Positions 987 through 19,600 of a stretch of DNA of 64,000 bases are shown in pieces. The DNA is from Saprospiraceae bacterium (lineage in GTDB: Bacteria; Bacteroidota; Bacteroidia; Chitinophagales; Saprospiraceae). Under the pieces are notes generated by a model. That model saw nothing but the letters and a program-made list of their open reading frames with translations, made no database searches and was not told the origin of the DNA. The translations under genes were made by a program, and so were the position numbers. Location: contig JBDTUE010000001.1 in the NCBI GenBank assembly GCA_040007895.1, positions 888-64,887 of the forward strand, written 5' to 3'. Each line of letters begins with the position of its first letter. Position 1 is the first letter of the stretch.

Positions 987-2429
987 TTAATTGGCCGGTA
1001 GTACTACCTGGTGAGATTCTACATTATGAAGATACAAAGCTAACGCAGCCGCCGCTCTTGAGTGTAATAATTGTGTATCACCATGAAGAATATTATTTAA
1101 TTCCTGATCAAGGAAATTAACATGATAATCTCCGCTTACAATAGAAGGATGATCCAGTACAAGGATGCCAAATGGAATAGAGGTGATAATACCAGAAATC
1201 TCAAATTCATCTAAAGCAGATCTGAGTAATTGAACACAGGAAGCTCTATCGGGAGACCATGCAATCAATTTTGCAATCATTGGATCATAATATACAGAAA
1301 CGACTTTTCCTTCTTTATACCCTGCATCAATGCGGATGTGTGGGGAGACTGGAATATTAAATGAATTGATTTTCCCGGTAGAAGGAGTAAAATGATTATC
1401 CGGATCTTCTGCATACACACGCCACTGTATCGCATGACCTTTAGCAATCAGATCGTTCTGAGTAAGAACCAGAGGTTTCCCTTCTGCGATGTCAAATTGC
1501 AGATCAACTAAATCCAGACCGGTGACCATTTCAGTAACTGTGTGCTCTACCTGGAGCCTGGTATTCATCTCCAGGAAATAATAATGACCATCATTATCAA
1601 TAATAAACTCAACGGTACCTGTACTGACATATCCTGATTTGCTGGCCAATTTAATTGCATCTTCTATCAGGTGGCTCCGGAGATCAGCTGACAAATGATT
1701 AGCAGGAGATTCCTCCATGATTTTCTGATGCCTTCGTTGTAAGCTACATTCCCGTTCTGGTAATCCTAATACATTACCGTACGTATCGGCAATGATTTGT
1801 ATTTCGATATGCCTCGGAGATTTAATTAGTCTTTCAATAAAGATATCATCATTACCAAAAGACGCTTTGGCTTCTGCTTTTGCTAATTCAATACCTTCAG
1901 ATAAGGCTGCGGCTTCCTCTATCATTCTCATTCCTTTTCCGCCGCCACCGGCTGCAGCTTTAATCATAACAGGAAATCCTATTTCATTGGCTATTTGTAT
2001 AGCCTGTGCTGTCTCAGATATTGGATATTGATTTCCAGGAACGAGAGGAATACCCAGGCTATGAGCTAATTTCTTTGCTGAGATTTTGTTTCCCAGCAGA
2101 TTCATTGCATCTATACCGGGACCAATAAAATGAATACCCGCTTCTGATACTGCTTTGACAAACTTTGCGTTTTCACTTAAAAAGCCATACCCCGGATGGA
2201 TAAAATCTACTTTGGCTTCCCTGGCTACTGCAATTATTTTTTCAATATTGAGATAACTCTGGCTTGCGGGAGCGGGTCCTATTGAATAGATTTCGTCAGC
2301 ATATTCCAGGTGAAGACTTTCTTTGTCAGCTTCAGAATAAATAGCAACACAAGTCCAGTTTCTTTTGCGTGCGGATTTAAATATCCTGATAGCAATTTCT
2401 CCTCTATTTGCAACTAATAATTTAGGCAT
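987..2429 (-). CDS. Biotin carboxylase (ATP-grasp, AccC-like) with no BCCP domain
   Basis: MPKLLVANRGEIAIRIF N-terminus, the AAAGGGGKGMRMI glycine loop and EMNTRLQVEHTVTE are all biotin carboxylase hallmarks. The 480-aa protein ends without a biotinyl (MKM) domain. Confidence 0.9.
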   Translation of the reverse strand: MPKLLVANRGEIAIRIFKSARKRNWTCVAIYSEADKESLHLEYADEIYSIGPAPASQSYLNIEKIIAVAREAKVDFIHPGYGFLSENAKFVKAVSEAGIHFIGPGIDAMNLLGNKISAKKLAHSLGIPLVPGNQYPISETAQAIQIANEIGFPVMIKAAAGGGGKGMRMIEEAAALSEGIELAKAEAKASFGNDDIFIERLIKSPRHIEIQIIADTYGNVLGLPERECSLQRRHQKIMEESPANHLSADLRSHLIEDAIKLASKSGYVSTGTVEFIIDNDGHYYFLEMNTRLQVEHTVTEMVTGLDLVDLQFDIAEGKPLVLTQNDLIAKGHAIQWRVYAEDPDNHFTPSTGKINSFNIPVSPHIRIDAGYKEGKVVSVYYDPMIAKLIAWSPDRASCVQLLRSALDEFEISGIITSIPFGILVLDHPSIVSGDYHVNFLDQELNNILHGDTQLLHSRAAAALALYLHNVESHQVVLPAN

Positions 2430-2458
2430 TTAAAACAACAAAATACAATATCTTTAAG

Positions 2459-4447
2459 ATGTTACGTAACCTTCAGATGACAGAGCCAGTATTTGTTCCT
2501 TCCCATGAAATGATCTCTACGTCAAATCTATTTCAATATATGGATTGGCTAAAAAATCAAGGGGGCCCCGATACTAAAGATTATGCTCAACTATGGAAGT
2601 GGTCTACTGAACAAACCGAAGAGTTTTGGAAGAGTATAATCAAATATTTCCATATAACTATCGACGTTGAACATAGTAGTGTAAAATCAGAGGAACCCAT
2701 GCCCAAAACCAAATGGTTTGAGGATGCGACTATTAACTATGGAGAATATTTAGTAAAAAGGGGATCGCCGGAAAAAATAGCGCTGGTTGAATGTAATGAA
2801 ACGGGAACCTCCATAGAAATCACCTGGGAAACTATTATTAATGAAGCAGGCAATTTGCAAATCTACCTTGAATCATTAGGTCTTAAATCAGGTGATAGGG
2901 TAGCGGCTTATTTGCCGAATATTAAAGAAGCCTCGATTTCATTTATAGCATGTTTGGCTAATGGTTATGTCTGGTCCGTCTGTTCTCCGGACTTTGGAGA
3001 AGGTAGTGTGATAGATCGATTCCAACAGATTGAACCTAAAGTACTCCTGGCAGTGGACCAATATCGTTACGGAGGAAAACATTTTGACAGGAAGGAATCT
3101 TTGAAAAAAATTGTTCATTCTATTTCAACGATTCAGTCGCTGATTTTAATCAATGTGGATGACAAAACAGATTATGTTGGTTTAAAGGTGGAAACCATTT
3201 TGTGGAATGAAATAATAAACAAATATGATAAACCGGTATTGAAGTTTAGGCAATTATCATTTAATCATCCTATTTGGATTTTGTATTCTTCCGGCACGAC
3301 TGGATTGCCTAAAGCTATCACACATAGCCATGGAGGTATGTTGCTTGAACATTTGAAGTATGTTCATTTTCACAATGATGTCAAACCAGGTGAAAGATAT
3401 TTTTGGTTTACGACTACCGGATGGATGATGTGGAATTATCTTCACGCTACCTGGTTGGCTGGGGCTATTATAATATTATTCGATGGTAATCCAATGTACC
3501 CGGATATCCATAACTTATGGAATCTGGCTGAATCACAGGGTATAGAACATTTTGGAGCCGGAGCGCCTTTCGTTCATGCCAGTATGAAATCTGATACTGC
3601 ATTACCAACATTGGTGAAACTAAGGAGTATAAGTAGTACAGGATCTCCTTTAAGTGCAGAAGCATACAGCTGGTTATATAAATCTATACAACATCCTTTT
3701 TATGTTTGGTCGATGAGTGGTGGTACAGATGTATGTACAGCCTTTGTCGGTGGATGTCCTATAAGACCCATTTATACGGGTGAAATCCAATGCCGAGCTT
3801 TAGGATGTAATCTCCATGTTTTTGATGAAAATGGAAATTCTGTTCAAAACAAAGAAGGAGAATTAGTAGTTACTCAATCTATGCCTTGTATGCCGATTTA
3901 TTTCTGGAATGATCCTTCTGATAAAAAATACCTCGAATCATACTTTGGGACTTATCCCGGAGTTTGGAGACATGGTGATTGGATTACATTGACCGAACAT
4001 GATAGTTTGATTATTTCAGGAAGATCGGATACGACCTTAAAAAGATTTGGGATACGGATAGGTACTTCAGAAATTTATGCAGCGCTTCAAACCATTCAGG
4101 AAATTGAAGATTCTTTGATCATTCATATCGAGGATAAGGAAGGAGAATCCGTAATGCCATTGTTCGTAAAATTAAAAAATGAATTAGAACTCAGTAAACA
4201 ATTAATAAGTACTATCAAAAACCAAATTAAATCACATTGCTCTCCAAGACATATCCCGGATCATTTTATTCAAGTTAAAGACATTCCTTATACATTAAGC
4301 GGAAAAAAAATGGAAGCCGCAGTAAAGAAATTGTTTATGGGAAAACAACTTAGTGAGATTGCGGCGCAAGGAGCTATGCGCAATCCTGAATGTTTGATTG
4401 AATATGAAATGATAGCAACTTCTGGATTTATGAAGTCGCACCATTAG
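2459..4447 (+). CDS. Acetoacetate-CoA ligase (acetoacetyl-CoA synthetase), AMP-forming
   Basis: 662 aa with the ILYSSGTTGLPKAI AMP-binding motif and an N-terminal LWKWSTEQTEEFWKSI region typical of AACS. The start could instead be Met7 (2477). Confidence 0.8.
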   Translation: MLRNLQMTEPVFVPSHEMISTSNLFQYMDWLKNQGGPDTKDYAQLWKWSTEQTEEFWKSIIKYFHITIDVEHSSVKSEEPMPKTKWFEDATINYGEYLVKRGSPEKIALVECNETGTSIEITWETIINEAGNLQIYLESLGLKSGDRVAAYLPNIKEASISFIACLANGYVWSVCSPDFGEGSVIDRFQQIEPKVLLAVDQYRYGGKHFDRKESLKKIVHSISTIQSLILINVDDKTDYVGLKVETILWNEIINKYDKPVLKFRQLSFNHPIWILYSSGTTGLPKAITHSHGGMLLEHLKYVHFHNDVKPGERYFWFTTTGWMMWNYLHATWLAGAIIILFDGNPMYPDIHNLWNLAESQGIEHFGAGAPFVHASMKSDTALPTLVKLRSISSTGSPLSAEAYSWLYKSIQHPFYVWSMSGGTDVCTAFVGGCPIRPIYTGEIQCRALGCNLHVFDENGNSVQNKEGELVVTQSMPCMPIYFWNDPSDKKYLESYFGTYPGVWRHGDWITLTEHDSLIISGRSDTTLKRFGIRIGTSEIYAALQTIQEIEDSLIIHIEDKEGESVMPLFVKLKNELELSKQLISTIKNQIKSHCSPRHIPDHFIQVKDIPYTLSGKKMEAAVKKLFMGKQLSEIAAQGAMRNPECLIEYEMIATSGFMKSHH

Positions 4448-4526: not shown

Positions 4527-5219
4527 TTATATGCGGCTATAAAGAATACCCATCAAAAGACCGATCACCAGCGAAATAGAGATCAGGATAATTGTTTTAA
4601 ACAATGAATTTCGCTTCTTCAATTTCGTATCAGTTTCGTTCATCGGACTTGTAAGCTGATTTAATATTTTAATTTTTTGATTAAAGTCACCTTTTAACGT
4701 TGATCTTATTTGATTCAAATTATCGAGGGATTGATTGATGTCATCAGGAATAACCGCATTCAGCATTTCTTTGATTCGTTTAGCCATAGTCGGTGACATA
4801 CCGTTTGTAGATATGGCAATTTTTAGCTGACCTTTCTGCACTATACTTGAAAGATAAAAATCACATAAGTCGGGCTTGTCAGCTGTATTGACCAGAATAT
4901 TTTTTTCAGCAGCCATAGCTTTAATAGCCTGATGCAAATCCGGATCATCTGTAGTCAGGAAGATTAAATCTTTTCCCTCAAGATCATGAGGTTCAAATGG
5001 TCTTTGCTCGAAGGTGCAATCAGGAAATTTATTAATTAACTCAAGGATTTCATTCTTTATCAATGGTGCAATGATCCTGATCTTGGCCCCTGGAGAATTT
5101 GATAAAATGGCTCTCAATTTTTCTAAAGCTACATTTCCTCCACCTACAATCAATGAATTTAATTCTGACATTTTTACAAACACCGGAAATAATTCATTTT
5201 TATTGATGGTACTGGTCAT
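4527..5219 (-). CDS. Precorrin-2 dehydrogenase / sirohydrochlorin ferrochelatase (CysG N-terminal domain, SirC/Met8-like) with a C-terminal transmembrane tail
   Basis: LIVGGGNVALEKLRAIL Rossmann motif, ...NILVNTADKPDLCDFYLSSIV..LKIAISTNGMSPTMAKRIKE aligns with the CysG N-domain. The last ~25 aa (LFKTIILISISLVIGLLMGILY) are hydrophobic. Confidence 0.85.
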   Translation of the reverse strand: MTSTINKNELFPVFVKMSELNSLIVGGGNVALEKLRAILSNSPGAKIRIIAPLIKNEILELINKFPDCTFEQRPFEPHDLEGKDLIFLTTDDPDLHQAIKAMAAEKNILVNTADKPDLCDFYLSSIVQKGQLKIAISTNGMSPTMAKRIKEMLNAVIPDDINQSLDNLNQIRSTLKGDFNQKIKILNQLTSPMNETDTKLKKRNSLFKTIILISISLVIGLLMGILYSRI

Positions 5220-5408: not shown

Positions 5409-6404
5409 TCAATATTCAAAATCATTAATCCATTTTTTGGCCTCTGTCGCTGCATACGAAATGATGATGTCAGCACCGCTACGATTCAATGCAGCCCACG
5501 CTTCCACGTGTGCTGATTGCCTGTTGACCATACCTATTTTTGCCATAGTTTCAATAGCAGCATATTCACCACTTACCTGGTAAGCAGCCAATGGGGAATG
5601 AACTCTTGATTTGATTAAAGAAATAATATCGGTATACAAACCTGAAGGTTTTACCATCAGGATATCTGCTCCTTCCATTTCATCTCTTAATGCACAGTTG
5701 AGAGCGTCTGCACTATTTAAAGCAGATAATTGATACGATTTCCTATCCTTTAAAGCTGTGCCTTTTGGCGAGGAATGACAAGCATCTCTGAACGGGCCAT
5801 ACCATTGAGAACTAAATTTGGTTGAATAACTCATGATCATCGTATCATGATTTCCTTGTATATCCAGGGCCTGACGGATAGATTTGATTCTGCCATCCAT
5901 CATATCACTGGGTGCTATACAATCTACGCCGGCGGCGGCGAGTTCAAGCGCATATAGCGTTAGTACATTTACGGATTCGGCATTCAGCACTTTAGTACCT
6001 TCCTTATTCATTAATCCACAATGTCCATGTGTAGTATAACTGCAGAGACATACATCTGAAGCCAGCCAAATATTATCTCCGTATTGATTTTTTAAATCAC
6101 GAATAATGCTCGAAGCAAATGAAAAATCAACAGGGTGTTCACTTTTATGTTCAGGGACTGGGAATAACAAAAATTTAGCAATTCCTTCCCGTAGGGCATT
6201 ATCTATGACCACATGAATAGTTTCCACAGTTTGGACTTGTACTCCATTCATGAATTCAACTAATCTTGGAGTCTTGAGGTTCTCTTCGACAAAAATGGGT
6301 AGGATAAAACTTTTATGATTCAGCCGGAGTGGACTTACCAACGAACGCACCAAAGCATTCGATCTCAGGCGGCGATATACTGAAGGGTATACTTCTTTTT
6401 CCAT
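5409..6404 (-). CDS. hemB: Porphobilinogen synthase (delta-aminolevulinate dehydratase)
   Basis: YRRLRSN..LVSP..L....FILPIFV N-terminus, CLCSYTTHGHCG metal site, ADILMVKP and YQVSGEYA motifs. The start overlaps the upstream fusion gene by 40 nt. Confidence 0.95.
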   Translation of the reverse strand: MEKEVYPSVYRRLRSNALVRSLVSPLRLNHKSFILPIFVEENLKTPRLVEFMNGVQVQTVETIHVVIDNALREGIAKFLLFPVPEHKSEHPVDFSFASSIIRDLKNQYGDNIWLASDVCLCSYTTHGHCGLMNKEGTKVLNAESVNVLTLYALELAAAGVDCIAPSDMMDGRIKSIRQALDIQGNHDTMIMSYSTKFSSQWYGPFRDACHSSPKGTALKDRKSYQLSALNSADALNCALRDEMEGADILMVKPSGLYTDIISLIKSRVHSPLAAYQVSGEYAAIETMAKIGMVNRQSAHVEAWAALNRSGADIIISYAATEAKKWINDFEY

Positions 6405-9115
6405 TTGGTGAAAGCATCAAAGGTAGGAAATACGATGGGGTTGATTCCAAGTTCTTTTAACTGATCATAGGTTTTGCCCGGAAGACAAACATGTATTATC
6501 TCTTCGGGTAATAGTGCTTTTACCGAATCATAATGTGCAAAACAATTCCAAAAGATCAATTTTGAAGATGTCAGTTTGTACTTATCTATAAGACTGGATT
6601 GATATTGAATATCATACGTAGACACCGTCTGGAAACCTTCATTAGCCCATTTCATGGCAGAAGATTCACTAGTCAAAATCTTCATTTCATCAGGATTAAT
6701 AGACATTAATTCTGTTTGGAATAGAGAATGAATAGATTTAAATCCCATCGAATCAGCACAACCTTCTACCCAAATCCCTAATTGTGCTAATTTGTACCAG
6801 GTCGTAGTACCAGCTGCCCATACTCGATGATTAATGAATGATTCCGGCGCTATTTCATTTACGGCAGAAATATGGGAAATGAAATAGGAATTGGAAGCAC
6901 CAACAATTTTGCCCGGAGATGAATACGTTTTTATACTTGTAAATCCGAGTTGATCTGAACTAATAATATGATCTGGATGAACATGATCTAAATTAAGTTC
7001 AAGACCGTACCAGTCTTCAAACTCATTTCCATACTGGTCAATACCTTTAGCAAGAATTGTTTCCTGTTGATTAAGTGTTATGGAAGAGACACCAAATTTT
7101 TGAATACAACCACTACCGTAGTTATTTGCAATCCGTTTCTCAGCCACACACTGTTCATGATTCTTTACATCTTTGATTGTAGCTAATACTTCGTTTGCAA
7201 ACAAATTGGATTTCAAACATTCCGTCACAATAGCACCCTGACACGGAGCCGGCAGACAATCTATTAAGGGCAAAACCATGATCTTTTTATCATGCAACAA
7301 TCCAGTGATCAGCGTAGCATTTTCATTATTCTTAAACATTCGATCGATTCCGGCAAATGCCAAAATAATGCCGTCATACTCACCCGTCTTTAATTTGGAT
7401 AACCTGGTTTCTATATTTCCACGGATGGGTACAGCTTCCAGTTTAATATCGGAAGATAGTTGAGGCAATGCTTTTTTGAGAAAATCAAGTGCCATTAACT
7501 CTCTCCTGAAAGAACATGTGCCAATTCTAATCGTTTTATTCTCTTTTATATTGTCGATGATGTTAGAATTAAAAATAACAATATCTCTTACTTCTGCCCG
7601 GTCAACCACAGCAAACGTATGATCACCAAAAAAATGTTCTGTGCTCATATCTTTTAATGAATGCACAGCGATATCGGCAACTCCCTGGTCAAGATCATTA
7701 AAAATGTCTTCTGTAAAAAAATCTATTCCTTCCTGAGTATGCAAAGGAATGTTGATTAACCGGTCACCTTTGCTATCTTTTAACTTTACTTCAATTTCAA
7801 GGTTTGGAAAGTGGACATTAATCTTTGACTTTACAATTTCGATCTGGGCTATTGATAGTCGTGAGCTTCTTCCGGTTATTATTATTTTTTGGTTTAAAAC
7901 AGAATTCAGACTTTTTGCTAAATGTTGAATGTCAGCAATACTATGTCTAGGTGTAATAGTAATTCTTAAACATTCCTGACCTTTTTTTACCGTTGGTTGA
8001 TTAATGGGTTGTACATATATTCCAAATTCATTCAACAATCTATCGGCAATCGCTTTACATCTGCTTGCATTGCCTATCAGAATATTAGTGATATGTGTTT
8101 CTGCTCCGGTAAAATGAATGTTGAATTGAGCTAAACCGGATCTGAGTATAACGATATTTTTAAAAAAATCATTTCTTAAAACTTGATTTGTCTTAATTTC
8201 ATGGATACTATTAACTGCAGTTACACAAATCGAAGGGGGTAGGGATGTAGTGAAAATAAACCCACTCCCGAAACTTCTGACAAAATCTATCCAATTATTG
8301 GATGCAGCGATATAGCCACCAAAAACTCCGATGGCCTTGGAAAGTGTACCATTAATAAAATCAACTGATCTTTCCAAGCCAAACTTTTCAAGCATGCCAG
8401 CTCCGGTATTCCCATAAAGCCCCACCGCATGAACTTCATCTATGTAAGTAAGGCATTGATATCTTTTTGCAAGTTCAATAATGGCTGAAAGAGGTGTCAC
8501 TGTTCCTGAAATAGAATAAACACTCTCAAATACAATTATTTTAGGTGCTGATGCAATAGTGGTTTTTAAAATATGTTCAAGATCAGCAACATCATTGTGT
8601 TTAAAAATTAGTTTTTTATTGGAGGTTGCCCTCATACCTTCAATCATGGACGCATGATTCTCTTCGTCAGATATAAATATTAAATCCGGAATCATTCGCC
8701 CCAATGTACATAACGTAGTCTGATTTGCCTGGTAAGCACTGTTGAACAAAAGAGCATTTTCTGTTTTATGCCAGCCAGCAATTCTTTTTTCAAGTTGACG
8801 ATGGTAAATAGTGCTACCTGATATGTTACGGGTACCACCGCTTCCTGTCCCTACCTTTGAAGTGGTTTCATTACTGATATCGACATTGCCAGACCAACTA
8901 CCTAAAGCTAGATAATCATTCGTACACCAATTAGTGGCTTGCATAGAGATTCCCTGATCATTAATATATTGAAATTTGGGAAATGTAGTAATCTGCTTAT
9001 CAATAGAAATAAAGTGTCTGTAAGATCCGCTTGATTTAAGGGCATCTAATTTTGATTTGATAAACTCATCAAAATCAAAGGAAGAAACCGAAATATCAGG
9101 ATCTTTTTCTGACAT
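6365..9115 (-). CDS. Tri-domain fusion: 5-aminolevulinate synthase (about aa 1-405), hydroxymethylbilane synthase HemC (about aa 410-700) and a uroporphyrinogen-III synthase-like HemD domain (about aa 700-916)
   Basis: One uninterrupted 2751-nt ORF. ALAS strings: NWCTNDYLALG, GTGSGGTRNISGST, NHASMIEGMR, YIDEVHAVGLYG, NGTLSKAIGVFGGYIA, YVQPINQPTV. HemC strings: GRSSRLSIAQ, DIAVHSLKDM, PAPCQGAIVTEC, GSGC. The tail has VWAAGTTTWYKLAQLG and LPGKTYDQLKELG, which are HemD-like. Confidence 0.85.
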   Translation of the reverse strand: MSEKDPDISVSSFDFDEFIKSKLDALKSSGSYRHFISIDKQITTFPKFQYINDQGISMQATNWCTNDYLALGSWSGNVDISNETTSKVGTGSGGTRNISGSTIYHRQLEKRIAGWHKTENALLFNSAYQANQTTLCTLGRMIPDLIFISDEENHASMIEGMRATSNKKLIFKHNDVADLEHILKTTIASAPKIIVFESVYSISGTVTPLSAIIELAKRYQCLTYIDEVHAVGLYGNTGAGMLEKFGLERSVDFINGTLSKAIGVFGGYIAASNNWIDFVRSFGSGFIFTTSLPPSICVTAVNSIHEIKTNQVLRNDFFKNIVILRSGLAQFNIHFTGAETHITNILIGNASRCKAIADRLLNEFGIYVQPINQPTVKKGQECLRITITPRHSIADIQHLAKSLNSVLNQKIIITGRSSRLSIAQIEIVKSKINVHFPNLEIEVKLKDSKGDRLINIPLHTQEGIDFFTEDIFNDLDQGVADIAVHSLKDMSTEHFFGDHTFAVVDRAEVRDIVIFNSNIIDNIKENKTIRIGTCSFRRELMALDFLKKALPQLSSDIKLEAVPIRGNIETRLSKLKTGEYDGIILAFAGIDRMFKNNENATLITGLLHDKKIMVLPLIDCLPAPCQGAIVTECLKSNLFANEVLATIKDVKNHEQCVAEKRIANNYGSGCIQKFGVSSITLNQQETILAKGIDQYGNEFEDWYGLELNLDHVHPDHIISSDQLGFTSIKTYSSPGKIVGASNSYFISHISAVNEIAPESFINHRVWAAGTTTWYKLAQLGIWVEGCADSMGFKSIHSLFQTELMSINPDEMKILTSESSAMKWANEGFQTVSTYDIQYQSSLIDKYKLTSSKLIFWNCFAHYDSVKALLPEEIIHVCLPGKTYDQLKELGINPIVFPTFDAFTKWKKKYTLQYIAA

Positions 9116-9117
9116 AC

Positions 9118-10788
9118 TTATTCTTTTGTTATCAATTGAGGGTTTTGATAAATGAAATCACCAAATGAACTGAACTCTTTTTTCTTTACACTATATTGTT
9201 GAAGGAGTGGATCTAGAATACTTAAAATTTGTTCCTCGTTGACACTTTCGTACGATTTCATGTTTAAGCGTAAGCCCAACCGGTCTCCGCCGAGGTGCAG
9301 ATTATAATGTCCATATGAAGTTCCAACCAATCCTATCTCAGCTACATATGGCCTCCCGCATCCATTAGGACAGCCTGTCATACGGATACTGATTGGATCA
9401 TCCAGAAGTTCATACTTAGCCAGGAGTGGTTCAATCTTACCAACTAAAGTCGGCAGATATCGTTGACCTTCTGCAAGTGCAAGTGGGCAGGTATTCATGG
9501 CGACGCAAGCTATTGCATTCCTTCTCATAGGTGTAGCCTGCTCGGTATGCGAGATTATCTGGTATCGATATAAAATTTCTTCTATCTTCTTTTTATTTTT
9601 TTGACTTATATCACTAACAATCAATTTTTGATTGGCAGTGAACCTGAAATTTGCGAGACCGGTTTGTGCAATTTCATACAAAGCTGTTTTAAAGGCTACT
9701 TTTTCATTGGCTATTCTCCCGTTTTCAATGAATAAAGTATAATGCCATTTCCCTTCATGGTTCTGTAACCAACCAAAATGATCTGTGCGTTCGGTAAATT
9801 CATAAGATCTTTCTTTTTCAAATTTAAATCCACATCTTGATTCTACCTCTGCTTTGAATTGATCCACTCCCATTTTATCAATGGTATATTTTAGCCTGGC
9901 TTGTTTTCTATCTCCCCGATTGCCATGGTCGCGCTGCACGGTCATGATTTCATAGATAGCTTTTAGTGTTTTTTCTTCGGTATCAGTGAACCCAATGACG
10001 GTACCTAATCTTGGATAAGTCTCTTTATTTCCGTGCGTGGTACCTAATCCTCCACCAATAGAAATATTGAAACCTTTTAATTTATCGTTTTCAATAATAG
10101 CAATAAGGCCAATGTCATTCGTAAATACATCCACATCATTATTAGGAGGGATGGCTATTGCTATTTTAAATTTTCTTGGTAGATATCGATCCTGGTATAA
10201 TGGATCTGTTTCGTCTTCTTTTTTCAATAAAGGCTCTCTGTCGAGCCAGATCTCATAATACCCATTTGATTTTGGTAAAGCAAGCGTACTGATCTTATCT
10301 GCATATTGAAAAACTTCCTCATGAATTTTGCTTTCTTTTGGATGAGCGCTGCAGATTACATTCCTGTTTACATCCCCGCAGGCAGCAATACTGTCCAGAC
10401 GTTGGGCAGCAAAATCTTTAAGTGTGGGCTTTAAATGGGATTTTAAAATCCCATGCAATTGAATGGTTTGTCTTGTGGTGATTTTAATTACACCGGTACT
10501 ATGCTCACCGGCAATATGATGCATCGCAATCCACTGGGCTGGTGTCAAAAATCCACCTGGCAATCTCAACCGGATCATAAAGGAATATAACCACTCAAGT
10601 TTTTTCTGAGCCCGTTCATCCCGTTGATCGCGATCGTCCTGCTGATACATACCGTGATGTTTGATGAGGGATTGGTCATCTTCACGGATAGCTCCAGTGA
10701 GATTGTCTTCGAGACTTTGACTAAGCGTGCCCCGTAAACCATCGCTTTTCATCTTTATTTTTTCAACTTGTGAAAGGACTACACTCAT
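9118..10788 (-). CDS. cysI: Assimilatory sulfite reductase (NADPH) hemoprotein beta subunit
   Basis: 556 aa with TTRQTIQLHGI, and the CPLALAE and TGCPNGCGRP siroheme/4Fe-4S cysteine cluster. Confidence 0.95.
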   Translation of the reverse strand: MSVVLSQVEKIKMKSDGLRGTLSQSLEDNLTGAIREDDQSLIKHHGMYQQDDRDQRDERAQKKLEWLYSFMIRLRLPGGFLTPAQWIAMHHIAGEHSTGVIKITTRQTIQLHGILKSHLKPTLKDFAAQRLDSIAACGDVNRNVICSAHPKESKIHEEVFQYADKISTLALPKSNGYYEIWLDREPLLKKEDETDPLYQDRYLPRKFKIAIAIPPNNDVDVFTNDIGLIAIIENDKLKGFNISIGGGLGTTHGNKETYPRLGTVIGFTDTEEKTLKAIYEIMTVQRDHGNRGDRKQARLKYTIDKMGVDQFKAEVESRCGFKFEKERSYEFTERTDHFGWLQNHEGKWHYTLFIENGRIANEKVAFKTALYEIAQTGLANFRFTANQKLIVSDISQKNKKKIEEILYRYQIISHTEQATPMRRNAIACVAMNTCPLALAEGQRYLPTLVGKIEPLLAKYELLDDPISIRMTGCPNGCGRPYVAEIGLVGTSYGHYNLHLGGDRLGLRLNMKSYESVNEEQILSILDPLLQQYSVKKKEFSSFGDFIYQNPQLITKE

Positions 10789-10841: not shown

Positions 10842-12524
10842 TTAATAGACATCGGCTTTGTAAATTCCGGATTCTTTTAATTCATTCCAATAGGCTTCTG
10901 ATTCCGGAGCACTTTTCCCGCTATGTGCATAAATGACATCAATCATAGCTTTTTCTACATCTTCACTCATTGGACTACGTGTACCGCTGATAAAGATGTG
11001 TGCGCCTTGTTTTATCCATTCGTAAATTTCTTTGCCTTTTTCTGCAATGCGATGTTGAACATAAATCTTTTCTTTCTGATCTCTCGACCATGCAAGGTCT
11101 ACGTGATGCAATGTACCGGTAGATGCATATTGCTGGATCTCTGATTGGTAAAAGAAATCACTGGTAAAATGTTGTTCTCCGAAAATCAACCAATTCCGCC
11201 CGCTGGCTCCCGAAGAATCTCTTTCTTCTATAAAAGAGCGCATAGGGGCCATACCTGTGCCGGGTCCTATCAATATAATATCCGTTTCAGGAGAAGGTAA
11301 CCGGAAGGATTTATTTTTATGGATATAAAATTCCAATTCAGTTCCTTCTTCAAAATCAGATAACATTTCACTACATAAGCCATATCTCTTTTCTCCATCG
11401 ATCACGAACGTACTCTTACTTACCAAAATATGAACTTCATTTTCCCTGACCTGGGGCGATGAACAGATAGAATATAATCTTGGCAATATCTCGGTTAGTG
11501 AAGGTATAAGTTCTATAAACTGGTAAGGTTTCGATACTGGATAAATATTTAAAAGATCAATTAAGTCCATCCTGACTTTTGGAATACTTTGGCCAATGAT
11601 CTCGGCATACTTTTGAACCTGAGATTCTTTAAGGTATGCAATATTGAGTCTGTTAGTAAAAATGTCCAGTAAAGTATGTCCTGATCCTTTATAAGGTACG
11701 CTTAAATTAGGATCGACATTGACTGTTGTAAATATCTTTTCCAACACAGATTTCTTATTCCTGGGTATTATCCCCAAGGCATCACCAGGTTCGTACATTA
11801 CCGGTTCTTCCGTCTTTATTTCTATATGGTTTGTTTCTTTATTCGCAGTACGCCCGTTTAAATTGATTTTAGTTTTTATAATACCGTGATAATATTTTTT
11901 TCCCGTATTTATTTTCGGAGCTATAGGTAGTGTTGTTTCAATTTCATCTGCAGGGAATGAATTGATATAGGTCTGAAACCAGGTAGAAGCGATACTTTGA
12001 TATTCAAGATCACATCGTTGAATCGGAAAGATTGCCTGTGCTCCCAGTTGAGTTAATTTTTCATGAACATCTTCACCCGCTTTACAAAACATAGGGTAGG
12101 AGGTATCCCCTAAAGCAAGGACCGCAAATTCAAGATTTGGATATTTAACTTCCGAAGACATCAGATAATCAAAAAACTTTTTAGAGGAAGGTGGTGGATC
12201 TCCATCACCATGGGTGCTGAGAATGATTACAAGATTTTTTTCATGTGCCAATTCTTCCGGTTTGTACGTGTCCATCCCGGCAACTTTTACTTTGGCTCCC
12301 TGTTTTTTGCCAATTCCAGAAAATTCGATAGCAAGTTTTTTAGAATTGCCCGTATCTGTGCCGTATAGTATTGTAAATTTTTTAAGGCTGCTCGTTGAAA
12401 CAGTTTCCTTTGGAATAGTAGCTGAGATTAATCCCGCTATATAACCATTCATCCAAATCAACTCCTCTTTGGAAATCTTCTCTATAAAATCATTAAGCGT
12501 CCGTAGTTTTCCTTCAGATAACAT
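10842..12524 (-). CDS. cysJ: Sulfite reductase (NADPH) flavoprotein alpha subunit
   Basis: Flavodoxin domain (ILYGTDTGNSKKLA) followed by an FAD/NADPH domain (RLYSICSSP, GPGTGMAPMRSF, ...YKADVY C-terminus). Confidence 0.9.
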   Translation of the reverse strand: MLSEGKLRTLNDFIEKISKEELIWMNGYIAGLISATIPKETVSTSSLKKFTILYGTDTGNSKKLAIEFSGIGKKQGAKVKVAGMDTYKPEELAHEKNLVIILSTHGDGDPPPSSKKFFDYLMSSEVKYPNLEFAVLALGDTSYPMFCKAGEDVHEKLTQLGAQAIFPIQRCDLEYQSIASTWFQTYINSFPADEIETTLPIAPKINTGKKYYHGIIKTKINLNGRTANKETNHIEIKTEEPVMYEPGDALGIIPRNKKSVLEKIFTTVNVDPNLSVPYKGSGHTLLDIFTNRLNIAYLKESQVQKYAEIIGQSIPKVRMDLIDLLNIYPVSKPYQFIELIPSLTEILPRLYSICSSPQVRENEVHILVSKSTFVIDGEKRYGLCSEMLSDFEEGTELEFYIHKNKSFRLPSPETDIILIGPGTGMAPMRSFIEERDSSGASGRNWLIFGEQHFTSDFFYQSEIQQYASTGTLHHVDLAWSRDQKEKIYVQHRIAEKGKEIYEWIKQGAHIFISGTRSPMSEDVEKAMIDVIYAHSGKSAPESEAYWNELKESGIYKADVY

Positions 12525-13332
12525 GAATAGTTTGATTTTTGGTTATTGCGTTGATTGGATTAAAAACCGAAGCGGTATCCACTATTGTATTCAAAAATTC
12601 TGGAATGATTTGATGAATCATCTTACCAATAATAATGATAGACGGTGACTTGAATGAAATCTCTGAATCCATTTTCATAAAAGAGGATAACGTAAATATG
12701 GAAGTGCGCTGAGCTTTACTGGTTGCTTCTTCAATAATAGCAAGCGGCATTTCCGGATCTGCTTCATGTTCTACTAAAGCTTTAATTAGTTTTTTTAATG
12801 GACTTACTGACATATAAAAAACCAAGGTATCACTGGTCGTTGCCCAATGTTTTAATGTATTTTCATCAGGATTATTCGTTGAAGACATTGTATGAATCTG
12901 AACACCTTCAGCGATATCTCTGCCTGTCAATGCAATTCCAAGGCTTGCCGCAGCGCCCGAAGCTGCCGTAATACCCGGGATTATTTCATAAGAAATTCCT
13001 GCATTTAAGAGCGATTTGATTTCAGCCTGAACATTACTATATATTGCAACGTCACCACCTTTTAATCGGACTGTCTTCAATCCACTAAGTGCTTTTTGAA
13101 CTAAGAGTGAGTTGATACTTTTTTGATCTGTGGATTCTTTCTCATAACCCTGCTTTCCAACAAAAATAATTTCAGCATGTTTATTAGCATAAAGAGTAAT
13201 GATTTCTGGATTGACTAAACGGTCAATCAATATACATTCCGCTGAGTTTAATGCTTCAACTAAACGCATAGTCACTAAGCCCGGATCTCCGGGGCCAGCA
13301 CCAGCAAAAATGATATGTGGTTTATGCGCCAT
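12514..13332 (-). CDS. cobA: Uroporphyrinogen-III C-methyltransferase (SUMT)
   Basis: FAGAGPGDPGLVT N-terminal motif, VRLKGGD and IPGITAASGAAA are typical of the tetrapyrrole methylase family. It sits between cysN and cysJ. Confidence 0.9.
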   Translation of the reverse strand: MAHKPHIIFAGAGPGDPGLVTMRLVEALNSAECILIDRLVNPEIITLYANKHAEIIFVGKQGYEKESTDQKSINSLLVQKALSGLKTVRLKGGDVAIYSNVQAEIKSLLNAGISYEIIPGITAASGAAASLGIALTGRDIAEGVQIHTMSSTNNPDENTLKHWATTSDTLVFYMSVSPLKKLIKALVEHEADPEMPLAIIEEATSKAQRTSIFTLSSFMKMDSEISFKSPSIIIIGKMIHQIIPEFLNTIVDTASVFNPINAITKNQTIHVI

Positions 13333-13335
13333 GAA

Positions 13336-14601
13336 TTATTGTGCGATGGATTCCTGGGGAATTTGAAATAAAATAGCGGCAACTGTTTTATGGCTGGTTT
13401 CATCTATAAGGATAGCGCTACCGGTTGTTTTTGAAACTTCATAAGGATCATACGCTAAATCTGATGCAGTTTGAATCTGAACATGAGCAACCTGGTTGAG
13501 TTCTAATCTCTGAATGTCGGTCTCATGATTTAATGTGTTTACATTAATCCGGTAATGAATCGCCTTGACAGCAGCTTTAACCAATCTGCTATGTTGTTGA
13601 AGTAAATACTTATTGCCAACGATCAGTGGTTTTTCATCCATCCAGCAAAGTATAGCTTCATGAGTTTTAGTTACAATGGGTAATTCTGTAGATTTTACAA
13701 TTAAATCACCTCTGCTGATATCGATATCATCTTTTAAATGAAGCACTGCAGGTGTTCCGGCTTCGACGGAATCAACCACTTTTCCATGATGTTCAATCAT
13801 GGATATCGTAGAACTTAATCCCAAGGGTAATACGGTAACATGATCACCGGTTTTGAATCCATCGCCGGCCACCTGTCCCGCATATCCTCTATAATCATGC
13901 AGATCTTCCGTCTGTGGTCTTATCACGTATTGAACCTGGAACCTGGTTTCGCCTTCTTCATCGGATTTGTGCAATTCAATAGTTTCAAGCAAGGGTAATA
14001 AAGGTGTTCCGGTATACCAAGGCATGAAAGATGAAGGATGCACTACATTGTCTCCGCTTAATGCTGAGATGGGAATAAACTGAACTTGTCGCAGGTTCAA
14101 CTTCTCTGCTATTTCTTTATAGTCTTCTACTATTTGATTGTATCGTGCTTCATCGAAATCAACTAAATCCATTTTGTTAATTGTTACGACGATCTGTGGT
14201 ATTTTCAATAAGGAAGCAATGATGGAATGCCGGCGGGTTTGTTCTATCACTCCCTGGCGTGCATCAATCAATAAGATCATCAGCTCAGAATTAGAAGCAC
14301 CGGTGACCATATTGCGGGTGTATTGAATATGACCAGGAGCATCAGCGATGATGAACTTTCTCAATGGACTTGAAAAATATCTATACGCTACATCTATGGT
14401 AATACCCTGTTCGCGTTCAGCACGTAAGCCATCCGTGAGTAATGCGAGATCGATTTGTGTAGTCTTCTTTGCTTTGGATACTTTTTCCAATTGTTCGATC
14501 TGATCTATCCAGATGTTTTTACTGTCATATAACAACCGGCCTATCAACGTACTCTTACCGTCATCTACACTTCCTGCCGTAATTAATCTTAATAACTCCA
14601 T
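13336..14601 (-). CDS. cysN: Sulfate adenylyltransferase subunit 1 (GTPase), with no fused APS kinase domain
   Basis: GSVDDGKSTLIGRLL P-loop, DAPGH and NKMD GTPase motifs. At 421 aa it has no CysC extension. Confidence 0.95.
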   Translation of the reverse strand: MELLRLITAGSVDDGKSTLIGRLLYDSKNIWIDQIEQLEKVSKAKKTTQIDLALLTDGLRAEREQGITIDVAYRYFSSPLRKFIIADAPGHIQYTRNMVTGASNSELMILLIDARQGVIEQTRRHSIIASLLKIPQIVVTINKMDLVDFDEARYNQIVEDYKEIAEKLNLRQVQFIPISALSGDNVVHPSSFMPWYTGTPLLPLLETIELHKSDEEGETRFQVQYVIRPQTEDLHDYRGYAGQVAGDGFKTGDHVTVLPLGLSSTISMIEHHGKVVDSVEAGTPAVLHLKDDIDISRGDLIVKSTELPIVTKTHEAILCWMDEKPLIVGNKYLLQQHSRLVKAAVKAIHYRINVNTLNHETDIQRLELNQVAHVQIQTASDLAYDPYEVSKTTGSAILIDETSHKTVAAILFQIPQESIAQ

Positions 14602-14622: not shown

Positions 14623-15531
14623 TTAAAAATATCCATTGATTTTTCGATCTTCCATAGCTGCTTCTGTTTGTCTGTCATCGATGCGGGTTTCTCCACGCTC
14701 ACTGATCTTACTGGACAAAATTTCAGAAATAACACTGTCTAGGGTATTTGCTGTAGATTCCACAGCAGCAGTACAGGTCATATCGCCAACTGTCCTATAG
14801 CGTACTTTTTTCTTTACTAAGATATCCGTTGGATCCAGTGTGATAAAAGGTGATACAGCTATGTACTGGCCTTCGTGCGCGATTACTTCTCTTTCATGAG
14901 AAAAGTATATGGAGGGCAAAGGAATATTTTCCTGGCGGATATAATTCCATACATCGATCTCTGTCCAGTTGCTGATAGGAAATACTCTTACATTTTCACC
15001 TTTGGTGATACGTCCGTTAAATATATTCCAGAGTTCAGGACGTTGCAGTTTAGGATTCCATTGTCCGAATTCATCCCTGACAGAAAATATTCTTTCTTTA
15101 GCTCTTGCTTTTTCTTCATCCCGGCGGGCTCCTCCGATGCAAGCATCAAATTTGAATTCTTCTATGGTATCCAGTAATGTATGAGTCTGCAACCAATTGC
15201 GACTGGCAAATTTACCAGTCGGCTCCGTTAAGTTCTTCGCCTTGATCGTATCCTCGACTTTCCGTACGATCAGTTTTGATTTCGTTTTTAAAGCAAGATC
15301 ATCTCTATAATCCAACGCTTCCTGGAAATTATGTCCGGTATCAATATGAACTAATGGAAACGGAATAGGAGCAGGGCTAAATGCCTTGATCGCAAGATAT
15401 ACTAATGTAATCGAGTCTTTCCCCCCACTAAACAATAATGCCGGACGCTCAAATTGTGCTGCGGTCTCCCGCATGATATAGATGCTTTCTGCTTCCAGCT
15501 CTTTAAGATGATGTATATGATGATTCAACAT
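14623..15531 (-). CDS. cysD: Sulfate adenylyltransferase subunit 2
   Basis: LKELEAESIYIMRE..., FSGGKDS PP-loop and DEEKARAKERIFS. The track start at 15576 overlaps cysH by 41 nt. The ATG at 15531 (MLNHHIHHLKELE) leaves a 4-nt gap and matches the usual CysD N-terminus. Confidence 0.9.
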   Translation of the reverse strand: MLNHHIHHLKELEAESIYIMRETAAQFERPALLFSGGKDSITLVYLAIKAFSPAPIPFPLVHIDTGHNFQEALDYRDDLALKTKSKLIVRKVEDTIKAKNLTEPTGKFASRNWLQTHTLLDTIEEFKFDACIGGARRDEEKARAKERIFSVRDEFGQWNPKLQRPELWNIFNGRITKGENVRVFPISNWTEIDVWNYIRQENIPLPSIYFSHEREVIAHEGQYIAVSPFITLDPTDILVKKKVRYRTVGDMTCTAAVESTANTLDSVISEILSSKISERGETRIDDRQTEAAMEDRKINGYF

Positions 15532-15535
15532 AAAT

Positions 15536-16270
15536 TTAATTCGATGTTTTGACCGGAGCATGGACGTGAAGTCCACACTCTTTATTTTCTTTATTTTCCC
15601 ACCACCATCTACCAGCTCTGAAATCTTCGCCTGGATTTATAGCCCGGGTACAAGGCGCACAACCAATCGATACAAAACCTTTATCATGAAGTGGATTATA
15701 TGGAATGTCGTGCGACCTGATAAAGGATTTTAATTCTTCAGTGCCCCATTGAAGTAGTGGATGTACTTTGATGACTTGATGTTGCTCATCCCATTCTACC
15801 ATTGGCATATGACTACGATCTGGTGAATGTGAAGCCCGAATCCCGGTAATCCAGATTTTTTTACCTGCTAAAGCTCGTTGTAGAGGTTCTACTTTCCGGA
15901 TAAAACAACATTGTTTTCTGTTATCCACAGATTCATAAAAACTATTAGGGCCATGGACTTCAATAAATTGAGCCAGAGAATTTTCCTGTGGGTGGTATGA
16001 TTTTATTGGTCTTTTATATTTCTCAAGAGTACGAGACCAGGTAGAATATGTTTCTGGGAAAAGTCTCCCTGTATCCAAAGTAAACGTTTCGATTCCGGAT
16101 TTACTTTCAGCGATCAGGTGAAACAGGACCTGATCTTCTTCACTGAAACTGGTAGATAAAGTAACAGCATGAGGATACCTTGTGTCCAGGGTCCTTAATA
16201 AGGTTACCAGATCCGTTTCTTCCTCAAGAAGTTGATTGATGTTATCGATATCGTTTTGTAAACTGGTCAT
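15536..16270 (-). CDS. cysH: Adenylylsulfate (APS)/PAPS reductase, thioredoxin-dependent; carries the Fe-S cluster cysteine pattern of the APS-reductase type
   Basis: KQCCFIRKVEPL plus SIGCAPCT (CC...CxxC) and the C-terminal KECGLH motif. Confidence 0.9.
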   Translation of the reverse strand: MTSLQNDIDNINQLLEEETDLVTLLRTLDTRYPHAVTLSTSFSEEDQVLFHLIAESKSGIETFTLDTGRLFPETYSTWSRTLEKYKRPIKSYHPQENSLAQFIEVHGPNSFYESVDNRKQCCFIRKVEPLQRALAGKKIWITGIRASHSPDRSHMPMVEWDEQHQVIKVHPLLQWGTEELKSFIRSHDIPYNPLHDKGFVSIGCAPCTRAINPGEDFRAGRWWWENKENKECGLHVHAPVKTSN

Positions 16271-16681: not shown

Positions 16682-19600
16682 ATGAAATTACGCACTCGAC
16701 TGTTTAGTTTATTTATCGTTTTTGCCATTTTTCAAGCATGTAAAAATGAATCTGTAACGGCGCCAAATCCTGAATTAATAGGAAAAGTATTCAGATCATT
16801 TACAAAGGGAATTATTTCCTCCAAATCGCTTTTGAAATATGTTTTCCTTGAAGATATGGTTTCTGAAGAAATGGTTGGCAAACCTCTTGCCAAATCTCCG
16901 GTTTCATTGTCCCCGGCTAGTCCAGGGATTTCATACTGGGAAACTCCAAATACGCTTGTATTTAAACCAAATCAAAACTTAAAAAGTGGTAGTCAATATA
17001 CAGCAACAGTCAATCTTGAATCTATACAACCATCACTGTCTAAAGAGCTGCCAAAACTAGTATATACCTTTCAAACCAGGGAAATATCTTTTACGGTATC
17101 TAAGCCATCATTTATCCTGAAGGCAGATCGCAATTTTCAACTCATCGGTGAAGTTCAAACTTCTGATGTATCTGATCCCCTATTGATAGAAAAGATATTA
17201 AATGCGCAACAAGATCAAAACAAGCTGGATATTTCCTGGGTCCATCATCCCGAATCAAATAGTAGCAACTATACTATTAATAATATAACCCGGGCAAAAT
17301 CTTCACAGATATCAATTCATTGGGATGGTACTCCGCTCAATCTTAATAGCAAAGGTGATTATTTGATTCCAGCAATTGATCCAGATGTATTCAAACTTTT
17401 AGATGTGACTTTTGAAGCAGATCCTCAGGCTAGATGGGTTTCTTCATTTTCTGATAATCTTTTATCAAATCAAAACCTGGATGGTCTCATTACAGTTAAA
17501 GGAAAAGCGATTACACTTCGTCATGTGATTGAAGGGAACAATGTGTATTCTTATATCACCGGGCAGATCGATGGCGATATAACTCTTACATATTCTCCCG
17601 GGATCACTTCTTCCAATAACAAAAAGCTGACTGAGTCTACCTCCTGGGAAGTGAATGTACCCGGATCAAACCCTCAGGTCAGGTTTGTGGGAAAAGGAAC
17701 TATCATACCCCAGGCAAATGATATCATACTACCATTTGAAGCGAAAGGACTAAAAGCAATTGATGTCGAAGTATTTAAAATCTTTGATAATAATATTCTT
17801 CAATTTTTACAATCCAACCAACTCGACGAATCCAATGATCTATACAGAGTAGGCAGATTGGTATCGCAGTCAAAAATTGAATTAAATACGATTTCATCTA
17901 CAATCGGGACCAATACATGGAACCATTTTGCCATAGACTTGAATACCTTATTGAAAACAGATGCTAACGCCATTTACCAGGTGCGGATTGGTTTTAAACC
18001 TTCCTATACTTCGTTGACTTGTTTGTCTAAATACAAAGAATCGCCTCTTGAATCGGATGAATTAACCAGTTTTTATGAGGATAATTATTACGGTTCTGAA
18101 GGTTATTACGAGGATTATAAATGGGAAGACCGGGATGATCCTTGTAAACCCGCTTATTACAACCGGGATCAGTTCATTGCGAAGAATGTCCTGATATCTA
18201 ATCTGGGCATCATCGGTAAAGTTTCCGACAAACAACTATTCGTTGCAGTGACCGATTTAAGAACTACTGAACCAATAGCAGGATGTTCAATAGATGTTTA
18301 TGATTTTCAACTTCAGAAGATAGCAACCCTTACCACGGACGCTGAAGGTATAGTGCAACAAATGATTTCAGGCATTCCTTATGCGTTGATTGCAAATTAT
18401 CAGGGATCCAAAGGCTATCTGCGTATGGCTGAAGGTCAGAACTTATCTATGAGTGCATTTGATATTGATGGCCAGCAAGTGAATAAAGGATTGAAAGGAT
18501 TGATTTATGGAGAACGCGGAGTGTGGAGGCCAGGAGATAGTATTTATCTGAATTTCATTTTGAATGATAAGGAATTGAAACTACCGGCTAATCATCCTGT
18601 TAAACTGAATGTCTATGATGCACAAAACAAACTTGTCATTCAAAAGATCACTTCTCAATCTATCGGTCATATCTATTCATTTAATTTCAAGACATCCGCA
18701 GACGCACCTACCGGAAATTGGAGGGCATCTATCAAGGCAGGTGGGGCCGATTTTACTAAAACCCTGAAAATTGAAGCGATCAAGCCAAATCGATTAAAAA
18801 TCAAATGGGATGCTGGTGAAGAGATTACTGCGGCACAAAATTCTATTAATTTGAATGCAACGTGGTTGACGGGATTACAGGCTTCAGGTTTATCGGCTAA
18901 AATAAATTCGAAATGGTCACCTTCTGCTACCGGTTTCCCGGCTTATAAGGATTATGAATTTCAGGATCCCGCCAGGATGAATAACGATCAAACGAATCTT
19001 ACGTTGTTTGAAGGCCCGTTAGATGCTAGCGGTAATGCCAATGTCCCATTGAAAATTTCAAAAGATTTTAAGCCATCGGGCAAAATGAATCTTCGTTTTA
19101 ATATTGAAGTTTCAGAACCGGGCGGAGATTTTAGTTCGCAGGTCCAATCATCTGTTTATCATCCCTACAAAAATTATGCAGGTGTAAAATTGCCTGCTGA
19201 TCCATGGGGCTATAAGACGTTAAACCTGAATAATTCATCAACTATAAGTTTTGTCGACATCGATACGAAGGGTAAGTTTCAGGCAAACCGAAAACTATCG
19301 GTAGGGTTGTATGAATTGGAATGGAGATGGTGGTGGGAACAAAGGGACAATGCGGTAGCAGGTTTTAATTCATCCAATCATACCAAAGCAATACAAAAAG
19401 CTAATATCACTACCAATTCAAATGGCCTTGCAGAATGGAAAGTAAGTATAAATCATTGGGGCCGCTATTTAATAAGAGTATGTGATACGGAATCGGGCCA
19501 TTGCAGTGGTGACTTTGCTTATGCGGGTTGGCCAGATGAAGGTAATGATCAAAACCATTTTGATATGGCCACCTTACTGAGATTGGGTACTAACAAGGAA

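Follow-up and report, generated by a model that had tools for sequence, protein, structure and literature searches.

According to a 2026 review, the alpha-proteobacteria are the only bacteria that possess 5-aminolevulinate synthase (ALAS), and the enzyme first appeared there. For later steps of tetrapyrrole synthesis, a fusion of HemC (hydroxymethylbilane synthase) with HemD (uroporphyrinogen-III synthase, UroS) is known in Leptospira interrogans as HmbS-UroS; both activities are reported for it in the account that PMC8698207 gives of Guegan et al. 2003. Here we analysed a 64,000-nucleotide stretch of DNA from a bacterium labelled Saprospiraceae (Bacteroidota) at NCBI (assembly GCA_040007895.1, contig JBDTUE010000001.1, positions 888 to 64,887 of the forward strand). 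This stretch is referred to as the window. Positions 6365..9115 on its minus strand are occupied by a single open reading frame (ORF) of 916 aa, in which an ALAS module is followed by a HemC module and a HemD-like module. We put the probability at roughly three in four that this ORF encodes a genuine trifunctional enzyme, fused once from neighbouring genes of a cassette of the Chitinophagales and working within a siroheme and sulfate-reduction operon. A preliminary description of the window, made from the letters alone, had proposed this architecture in a Bacteroidota-type host and had called ALAS unusual in such a genome. The NCBI label and the review agree with it on these points. It had also held the architecture to be undescribed, and the literature searched gave no account of a Bacteroidota ALAS, of the cassette or of an ALAS-HemC-HemD fusion; key subscription reviews lay outside the coverage of that search, so publication is possible.

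The ORF begins with ATG and is free of internal stop codons, as had been described. The ten motifs that had been quoted for its modules were all found (at aa 63, 91, 153, 224, 255, 367, 415, 481, 622 and 667). The protein is 100% identical to GenBank MEP7320263.1, "MAG: 5-aminolevulinate synthase [Saprospiraceae bacterium]" (MAG, metagenome-assembled genome). This label names the ALAS part and leaves the HemC and HemD parts unnamed. Since the record was already deposited and automatically annotated as ALAS, databases already show an ALAS for these bacteria. The linker between ALAS and HemC is no longer than about 5 residues (...SLNSVLNQ followed directly by KIIITGRSS...). A survey for the same domain order, as had been suggested, recovered about 20 clusters (90% identity) of 908-919 aa that have this architecture in common and are 50-63% identical. 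One of them contains 14 members, all of 910 aa, from NCBI, ENA, JGI and Logan, and another fused protein is present on 13-15 contigs. The ALAS/HemC junction is conserved in an alignment of 22 fused proteins. GC content (0.355-0.366) and GC content at third codon positions (0.26-0.33) are uniform over the three modules and near those of neighbouring and housekeeping genes.

The ALAS module comprises aa 1-409 (7889..9115, minus strand). It scored 484.5 bits against the ALAS equivalog model TIGR01821, for which the cutoff is 338.55. When a profile of the 22 fused proteins was compared with PDB sequences, solved ALAS were matched with 464-497 bits (2bwn, 497) and the best non-ALAS protein with 286. 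The module is 45-49% identical to alpha-proteobacterial and mitochondrial ALAS over their full length, with 45-47% for the alpha-proteobacterial sequences, and 29.5% identical to the Kbl encoded in the window itself (56269-57459). Both motifs quoted earlier for that Kbl were found in its ORF. It is a genuine Kbl (TIGR01822, 671.7; cutoff 493) and scored 299.1 on the ALAS model, under the 338.55 cutoff, and so served as a mirror-image internal control; the distinction drawn earlier between the two proteins was upheld by this reverse pattern of scores.

The residues of the active site point in the same direction. K260 (codon 8336-8338) is aligned with K248 of Rhodobacter capsulatus ALAS, which we take to be the lysine forming the Schiff base with pyridoxal 5'-phosphate (PLP), and H154, D226 and H229 with H142, D214 and H217, presumably PLP-binding. 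N66 and R384 correspond to N54 and R374, the presumed partners of the glycine carboxylate. R33, T95, N97, I98 and K168 correspond to R21, T83, N85, I86 and K156, assumed here to contact succinyl-CoA, with R21 and T83 on the succinyl carboxylate. These roles are as reportedly assigned from work on the R. capsulatus enzyme. R33, T95, N66 and R384 are invariant among the 22 fused proteins.

A neighbor-joining tree of ALAS domains was rooted on the Kbl of the window, which was its sole outgroup; the tree contained no AONS or SPT references. The N-terminal domain grouped with ALAS and apart from Kbl. The Bacteroidota-type ALAS formed their own clade alongside the alpha-proteobacterial and eukaryotic ALAS in 192/200 bootstraps; this clade excludes one divergent protein, P0024, and with P0024 included the value was 13/100. 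By these sequence comparisons residues 1-409 are a true ALAS, and not a KBL, AONS or SPT, as the preliminary description had proposed. The tree also points to the ALAS clade of the Chitinophagales not being a recent import from any sampled alpha-proteobacterium.

The HemC module (aa 410-705; 7001..7888, minus strand) was recognised by TIGR00212 and PF01379, by alignment to the E. coli enzyme (1pda) and by its fold, so its earlier assignment was confirmed at all three levels. The cofactor cysteine named in that assignment is C670 (codon 7106-7108), aligned with C242 of E. coli. D489, the catalytic aspartate, and K488 align with D84 and K83. The arginines R416, R506, R537, R538, R565, R571 and R592 align with R11, R101, R131, R132, R149, R155 and R176, and S418, Q424, S486 and Q626 with S13, Q19, S81 and Q198. 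The roles of the cofactor cysteine, the aspartate and the arginine cluster in E. coli HemC are assumed by us to be the accepted ones. An AlphaFold2 model of aa 405-916 had a predicted local distance difference test score (pLDDT) of 93.2 and a predicted template modelling score (pTM) of 0.91. Compared by Foldseek with solved porphobilinogen deaminases, it gave target-normalised template modelling (TM) scores of 0.66-0.79.

The remaining residues, aa 706-916 (6368..7000, minus strand), make up the HemD-like module, which was assigned by AlphaFold2 and Foldseek. A model of aa 670-916, built from an alignment of 84 sequences, had a pLDDT of 92 and a pTM of 0.80. All 11 matches of the tail in PDB at E<=0.001 were UroS, each with probability 1.00, from five organisms (H. 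pylori, T. thermophilus, S. amazonensis, P. syringae and P. aeruginosa). The next match had E 6.5e-3 and probability 0.25. The tail of about 215 aa that had been called HemD-like was thus borne out by its predicted fold. Among 23 diverse members six positions are invariant (four Gly, among them G769, G791 and G880, as well as T882 and P893) and 18 nearly invariant, including T772, W773, D788, Y834 and H875. A profile search of 1.84 billion representatives found the domain in 700 clusters at E<=0.001, and in the best 150 of these nearly all proteins are ~480-545 aa long with the domain C-terminal to HemC. Conservation across the 23 members and the 700 clusters indicates selection on function. 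HemD is the sole siroheme step for which the window operon offers no other candidate gene. The tail domain holds the HemD position in this operon, in at least 15 related loci and in locus L084, and no other HemD was seen in the loci inspected. The models support the view that the tail is of the uroporphyrinogen-III synthase type, highly diverged and cryptic to sequence models.

The genes around the fusion were identified next to one another from 16270 down to 4527. All lie on the minus strand, tightly packed, in the order cysH-cysD-cysN-cobA-cysJ-cysI-fusion-hemB-cysG(N). The cysH/APS reductase gene (15536-16270; NF002537, 261.8 against a cutoff of 154) is followed by the sulfate activation genes cysD (14623-15576; NF003587, 439 against 195) and cysN (13336-14601; TIGR02034, 526.5 against 336). 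The cobA gene (12514..13332; TIGR01469, 224 against 185) encodes uroporphyrinogen-III C-methyltransferase, the first siroheme-specific step. A cysJ-like sulfite reductase flavoprotein gene (10842..12524) was recognised by the Pfam domains Flavodoxin_1, FAD_binding_1 and NAD_binding_1; its best NCBIfam match, TIGR01931 with 499.5, was below the cutoff of 668. The cysI gene for the siroheme-using sulfite reductase hemoprotein (9118..10788; NF010029, 729.8 against 457) has its stop codon 2 nt from the ATG of the fusion. Downstream of the fusion lies hemB for porphobilinogen synthase, step 2 of the pathway (5409..6404; PF00490, 347.5 bits; NF006762, 342.4 against 297). As had been described, hemB is a separate, overlapping gene. 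According to the ORF coordinates its start and the 3' end of the fusion share 40 nt (6365..6404, minus strand), so hemB is probably translationally coupled to the fusion. Its product contains the cysteine-rich motif DVCLCSYTTHGHCG, which we take to be the zinc-type metal site of porphobilinogen synthases.

The last gene of the operon (4527..5219, minus strand) encodes a precorrin-2 dehydrogenase/sirohydrochlorin ferrochelatase of the CysG N-terminal type, 230 aa in length (TIGR01470, 118.4 against 62.3; PF13241, PF14824). A lone hydrophobic helix, SLFKTIILISISLVIGLLMGILYSRI, forms the C-terminus of this CysG-N. Most relatives have a homologue of ~494-514 aa that includes a TauE/SafE membrane domain; that of L087 has 197 aa. 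The protein of the window resembles a truncated remnant and may still be membrane-anchored. The window lacks a DUF2490 gene between hemB and cysG-N, where it has a gap of 190 nt; such a gene was seen at this position at L085:10563-11255, L087:13687-14385 and L088:13710-14414.

Provided that the tail is HemD, the operon covers the reduction of sulfate to sulfide and the complete route by which glycine and succinyl-CoA become siroheme. The neighbours of the fusion in the operon are all tetrapyrrole or sulfur-assimilation genes. This context of siroheme, sulfite reductase and sulfate assimilation genes, which had gone unnoticed in the preliminary description, gives the function of the fusion. As the operon holds sulfite reductase together with the pathway for its cofactor, apo-sulfite reductase and siroheme would be made together. 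Over the whole window Rfam gave 0 riboswitch or regulator matches. Scans for sigma-70 promoters and terminators gave nothing above chance, and the model of the tool used does not cover Bacteroidota promoters. Outside the operon the window consists of ordinary chromosomal DNA, with gyrA, ilvD, peptidases and an alpha-2-macroglobulin gene. The latter (16682-22189, plus strand, 1835 aa, of the bacterial type) lies upstream of the operon and is divergent from it. The opposite flank (987-4447) carries an acyl/acetyl-CoA synthetase-like gene, a biotin carboxylase and a class IV aminotransferase.

On the proposed mechanism, the PLP-dependent ALAS at the N-terminus would condense glycine and succinyl-CoA to 5-aminolevulinate (ALA; step 1). 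ALA would leave the fusion and be condensed by HemB, made from the overlapping gene (step 2), and the porphobilinogen would return to HemC. HemC would polymerise four porphobilinogens to hydroxymethylbilane (step 3), and the adjacent HemD module would cyclise this unstable product to uroporphyrinogen III (step 4). The joining of HemC to HemD would limit spontaneous loss of hydroxymethylbilane to useless uroporphyrinogen I, and channelling of hydroxymethylbilane between the two modules appears plausible. CobA and CysG-N would then complete siroheme for CysI. By analogy to known ALAS dimers, the fusion is expected to dimerise through its ALAS module. Each chain would then bear a HemC-HemD arm, the rigid packing of which is suggested by the pTM of 0.91. 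The enzyme activities of the fusion are likewise those expected from its modules.

The distribution of the arrangement was followed by a scan of GTDB species-representative genomes, and the results refer to the best 80 matches. The arrangement was confined to Bacteroidota (Chitinophagaceae, Chitinophaga, Segetibacter and Saprospiraceae/Saprospirales); the lower matches were stand-alone alpha-proteobacterial ALAS with 44-47% identity. ORF analysis found the fusion in one of the Bacteroidota representatives, L003. The others have separate, often overlapping genes for ALAS (402-431 aa), a HemC-HemD-like protein (488-530 aa) and HemB (~331 aa). Synteny by tblastn showed the full operon of the window in L003, where the genes are fused, and in L005, where they are split. 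In most other loci a core of ALAS, HemC-HemD, HemB and CysG-N adjoins a gene of the sulfite/nitrite reductase type. The 40-nt overlap of HemD and hemB recurs in at least 10 related loci. Divergent fused members retain the whole operon, and in L088 synteny with the window extends far past the operon; the same flanks there indicate vertical inheritance of the whole region. In the tree the fused proteins form one clade inside the Bacteroidota-type ALAS (89/100 bootstraps), which indicates a single fusion of adjacent genes in one Saprospiraceae lineage. The triple fusion is thus the derived state, and the split cassette is widespread in Chitinophagales. What had been presented as an unusual ORF is therefore unusual in its triple fusion, while the underlying set of ALAS, HemC-HemD and HemB is not confined to it.

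Several other observations were made on these loci. P0024 (L083:1717-4389) is an ALAS-HemC-HemD-like protein of 890 aa, 33% identical to the protein of the window, that lies outside the Bacteroidota ALAS clade and adjoins an MFS transporter gene on a 4.6-kb contig. It may be an independent or a much older triple fusion. In L001, L085 and L086 the cassette is closely followed by a gene for a TonB-dependent receptor; in L021 such a gene comes immediately after the stand-alone ALAS gene. L004 (CAZJYB010000018.1, labelled Anaerolineaceae) encodes a Bacteroidota-type ALAS 54% identical to that of the window, and the cassette partners are absent from it; either the contig was misbinned or the gene was transferred to Chloroflexota. 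L030 (JBNOAI010000007.1, 340 kb, labelled Leptospira interrogans) encodes an ALAS of the alpha-proteobacterial type in a tight group with L028, and the contig is probably contaminated or mislabelled. Among the longer Chitinophagales contigs with the cassette are DDFK01000001.1 (1.76 Mb) and the ENA contig of L001 (2.6 Mb). On the contig of L001 the ALAD (hemB) gene at 11539-12535 is split into ORFs of 221 and 103 aa, as a result of either a frameshift error or a pseudogene.

A number of results weigh against a trifunctional enzyme working in this operon. The HemC module passed TIGR00212 narrowly (169.9, cutoff 164). The model check proposed earlier for HemC gave a mixed answer: PF01379 matched clearly (149.4, cutoff 22.1), and PF03900, the complete HemC domain 3, had no match in the fusion in a Pfam scan. 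In the models domain 3 is reduced to three strands after C670, and its C-terminal helices are absent before the HemD-like domain begins. The tail had no match in NCBIfam and matched zero Pfam families at E<=10, so that the HEM4 family PF02602, through which HemD was to be confirmed, failed to recognise it. Neither a profile of HemC plus tail nor one of the tail retrieved UroS from PDB sequences at E<=10. With no HEM4 or PF03900 match, the HemD assignment is based on predicted structure and gene context. The TM-scores of the tail were modest (0.37-0.58). UroS has a flexible hinge between its two domains, and we assume that this hinge accounts for the modest scores. A review states that UroS sequences show "very little alignment" among themselves, which explains the failure of sequence models on the tail. 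The same review holds that UroS has no known essential or agreed active-site residue, so activity of the tail is unreadable from sequence. Because the fusion skips step 2, it would not form a simple linear channel. Co-transcription of the operon is suggested by gene spacing. All genomes found are MAGs or metagenome contigs.

Among the other explanations, one accepts the enzyme and restricts its purpose. The ALAS-HemC-HemD fusion and HemB of the operon could be a second copy dedicated to siroheme and switched on with sulfur assimilation, haem being made by a separate housekeeping set, either of the C5 route or a stand-alone ALAS with a canonical HemC. The cassette always stands beside a sulfite or nitrite/nitrate reductase and siroheme-specific genes. 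Moreover, CobA-ALAS fusions of ~668 aa exist (P0033, P0051, P0107; L002:4499-6508), with a NIR_SIR gene immediately upstream of their own. In the tree they belong to the Bacteroidota-type ALAS clade, and their genomic position indicates an independent tie of this clade to siroheme. Stand-alone ALAS occur in the Saprospiraceae L018, L019 and L021 and form a separate subclade in the tree. In L018:70-6253 (MAG JAYSQG010000384.1) the stand-alone ALAS gene follows a haem cluster (hemH-hemC-hemE-hemF-hemJ) that encodes ferrochelatase, a canonical HemC of 305 aa with PF03900, HemE, HemF and a UPF0093/HemJ-type protein; L019 and L021 resemble it. This is the kind of housekeeping set such a division of labour calls for, and it indicates that ALAS also serves haem in Saprospiraceae. 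A 219-aa ORF after the stand-alone ALAS of L018 has no family match; it was considered as a free HemD-like protein and rejected (hhalign probability 0.3). Against a siroheme-only copy, each of the 18 Bacteroidota loci within the best 80 matches came from a different assembly, a slight point in favour of a single set; this count is weak as most of the genomes are incomplete MAGs. There were also no haem enzymes among the scanned ORFs of the 64-kb window outside the operon. We regard a siroheme-only duplicate as possible yet doubtful, and lean towards an operon whose set of genes also supplies haem.

A second explanation concerns the tail. Its 211 residues could keep the HemD-like fold and be catalytically dead, an appendage of HemC, with UroS supplied by another, unrecognised gene. 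The tail is 8-14% identical to solved UroS, and the lack of any sequence-model match extends to ten divergent members of its family, in which HEM4 was found in 0/10. Earlier claims of a bifunctional HemC have also proved wrong, for example that for HmbS of Plasmodium as the source consulted relates it. However, true UroS sequences barely align either, the tail domain stands where HemD would be expected in clusters of the C4 as well as the C5 type, in which no other HemD was seen, and the Leptospira fusion is reported, in the account cited, to have both activities. A dead appendage would also leave unaccounted for the six invariant residues and the near-invariant T, W, D, Y, H and C positions kept in a family of this size. 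A catalytically dead tail is thus improbable, and a working HemD module is preferred.

For the N-terminal module, another alpha-oxoamine synthase (KBL, AONS or SPT-like) or a cyclising ALAS for C5N units would have to be assumed. These enzymes belong to the same fold superfamily, and the scores on the sister models are sizeable, though all below cutoff (bioF 298.6 against 426, Kbl 281 against 460, SPT 231 against 500). In Streptomyces, homologues of ALAS take part in making antibiotics. However, of the equivalog models only that for ALAS was passed, ALAS structures lead by more than 200 bits, the two presumed succinyl carboxylate binders R33 and T95 do not vary, a genuine Kbl is encoded elsewhere in the window, and the neighbouring genes all belong to tetrapyrrole synthesis or sulfur assimilation. 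Such an identity is very unlikely. An artefact of assembly or binning, whether a chimeric join or a stop lost by a single-base error between halves that are separate and overlapping in most relatives, can practically be dismissed, because the fused length and junction recur in about 20 clusters from independent projects, in the same-length 14-member cluster and on 13-15 contigs, within one fused clade and with uniform composition.

On a wider scale, there is a view of the whole order that we favour somewhat over its negation. The Chitinophagales (Saprospiraceae, Chitinophagaceae) would natively use the Shemin (C4) route, with an old, vertically inherited ALAS clade in haem and siroheme operons that became fused in one lineage. 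If this is true, the origin of ALAS in alpha-proteobacteria, and its confinement to them among bacteria, are wrong, and ALAS and glutamyl-tRNA reductase (GluTR) are interchangeable heads on one HemC-HemD module. A well-supported, compositionally native ALAS clade in Bacteroidota bears on the origin of ALAS, including the ancestry of the mitochondrial enzyme. If the tail is HemD, hundreds of proteins of ~500 aa annotated as "hydroxymethylbilane synthase" bear an unrecognised HemD domain, and pathway reconstructions will therefore wrongly call HemD missing in these bacteria. The operon would form a small unit, complete in itself, that turns central metabolites into siroheme and also encodes the client enzyme of this cofactor. 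One gene for three trunk steps might be of use in the production of ALA, porphyrins, siroheme or B12.

The component enzymes are all known. What is new is the architecture, the Bacteroidota setting of ALAS and the cryptic HemD family. With R. capsulatus HemA (PDB 2BWN) and mitochondrial ALAS, the N-terminal module shares the family, the predicted chemistry, the PLP lysine and the substrate-contact residues. It differs from alpha-proteobacterial ALAS in its Bacteroidota host and in its own clade, which is not nested in a sampled alpha-proteobacterial group, as well as in being fused to HemC-HemD inside a sulfite reductase and siroheme operon.

The HmbS-UroS fusion of Leptospira, as far as the cited account describes it, joins the same two consecutive enzymes in the same order in one polypeptide, with the same rationale of passing on unstable hydroxymethylbilane. 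Judged by that description, the protein of the window differs from it in a HemD part unrecognisable by sequence, in a HemC domain 3 truncated into HemD and in the ALAS at its N-terminus. The nearest likeness was found in two proteins of ~800 aa, P0258 and P0266, in which GluTR is followed by HemC and the same HemD-like domain (E about 1e-25 to the tail profile). The corresponding locus L084:8001-14351, on a 144-kb marine contig, carries GluTR-HemC-HemD-like, then an Aminotran_3 (HemL-like) gene, a two-component system and URO-D (HemE), and no other HemD was called in the 18 kb of this locus. In these proteins too an ALA-forming first enzyme stands N-terminal to the module and step 2 is skipped; the first enzyme, however, is that of the C5 route and the context is a haem cluster. 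It appears from the sequences that one HemC-HemD-like module can carry either a C4 or a C5 first enzyme at its N-terminus. The ALAS- and GluTR-headed fusions, being parallel, amount to a natural experiment on the question why octameric HemB is kept apart when the first enzyme is joined to steps 3 and 4.

The E. coli and Salmonella CysG and the cysJIH-cysG arrangement likewise tie siroheme synthesis to assimilatory sulfite reductase and show multifunctional fusions in this pathway. CysG fuses three late steps (methyltransferase, dehydrogenase and ferrochelatase), which in the window are split into CobA and CysG-N. Fusion in the window instead affects the early trunk, whose steps 1, 3 and 4 are joined and have been drawn into the operon.

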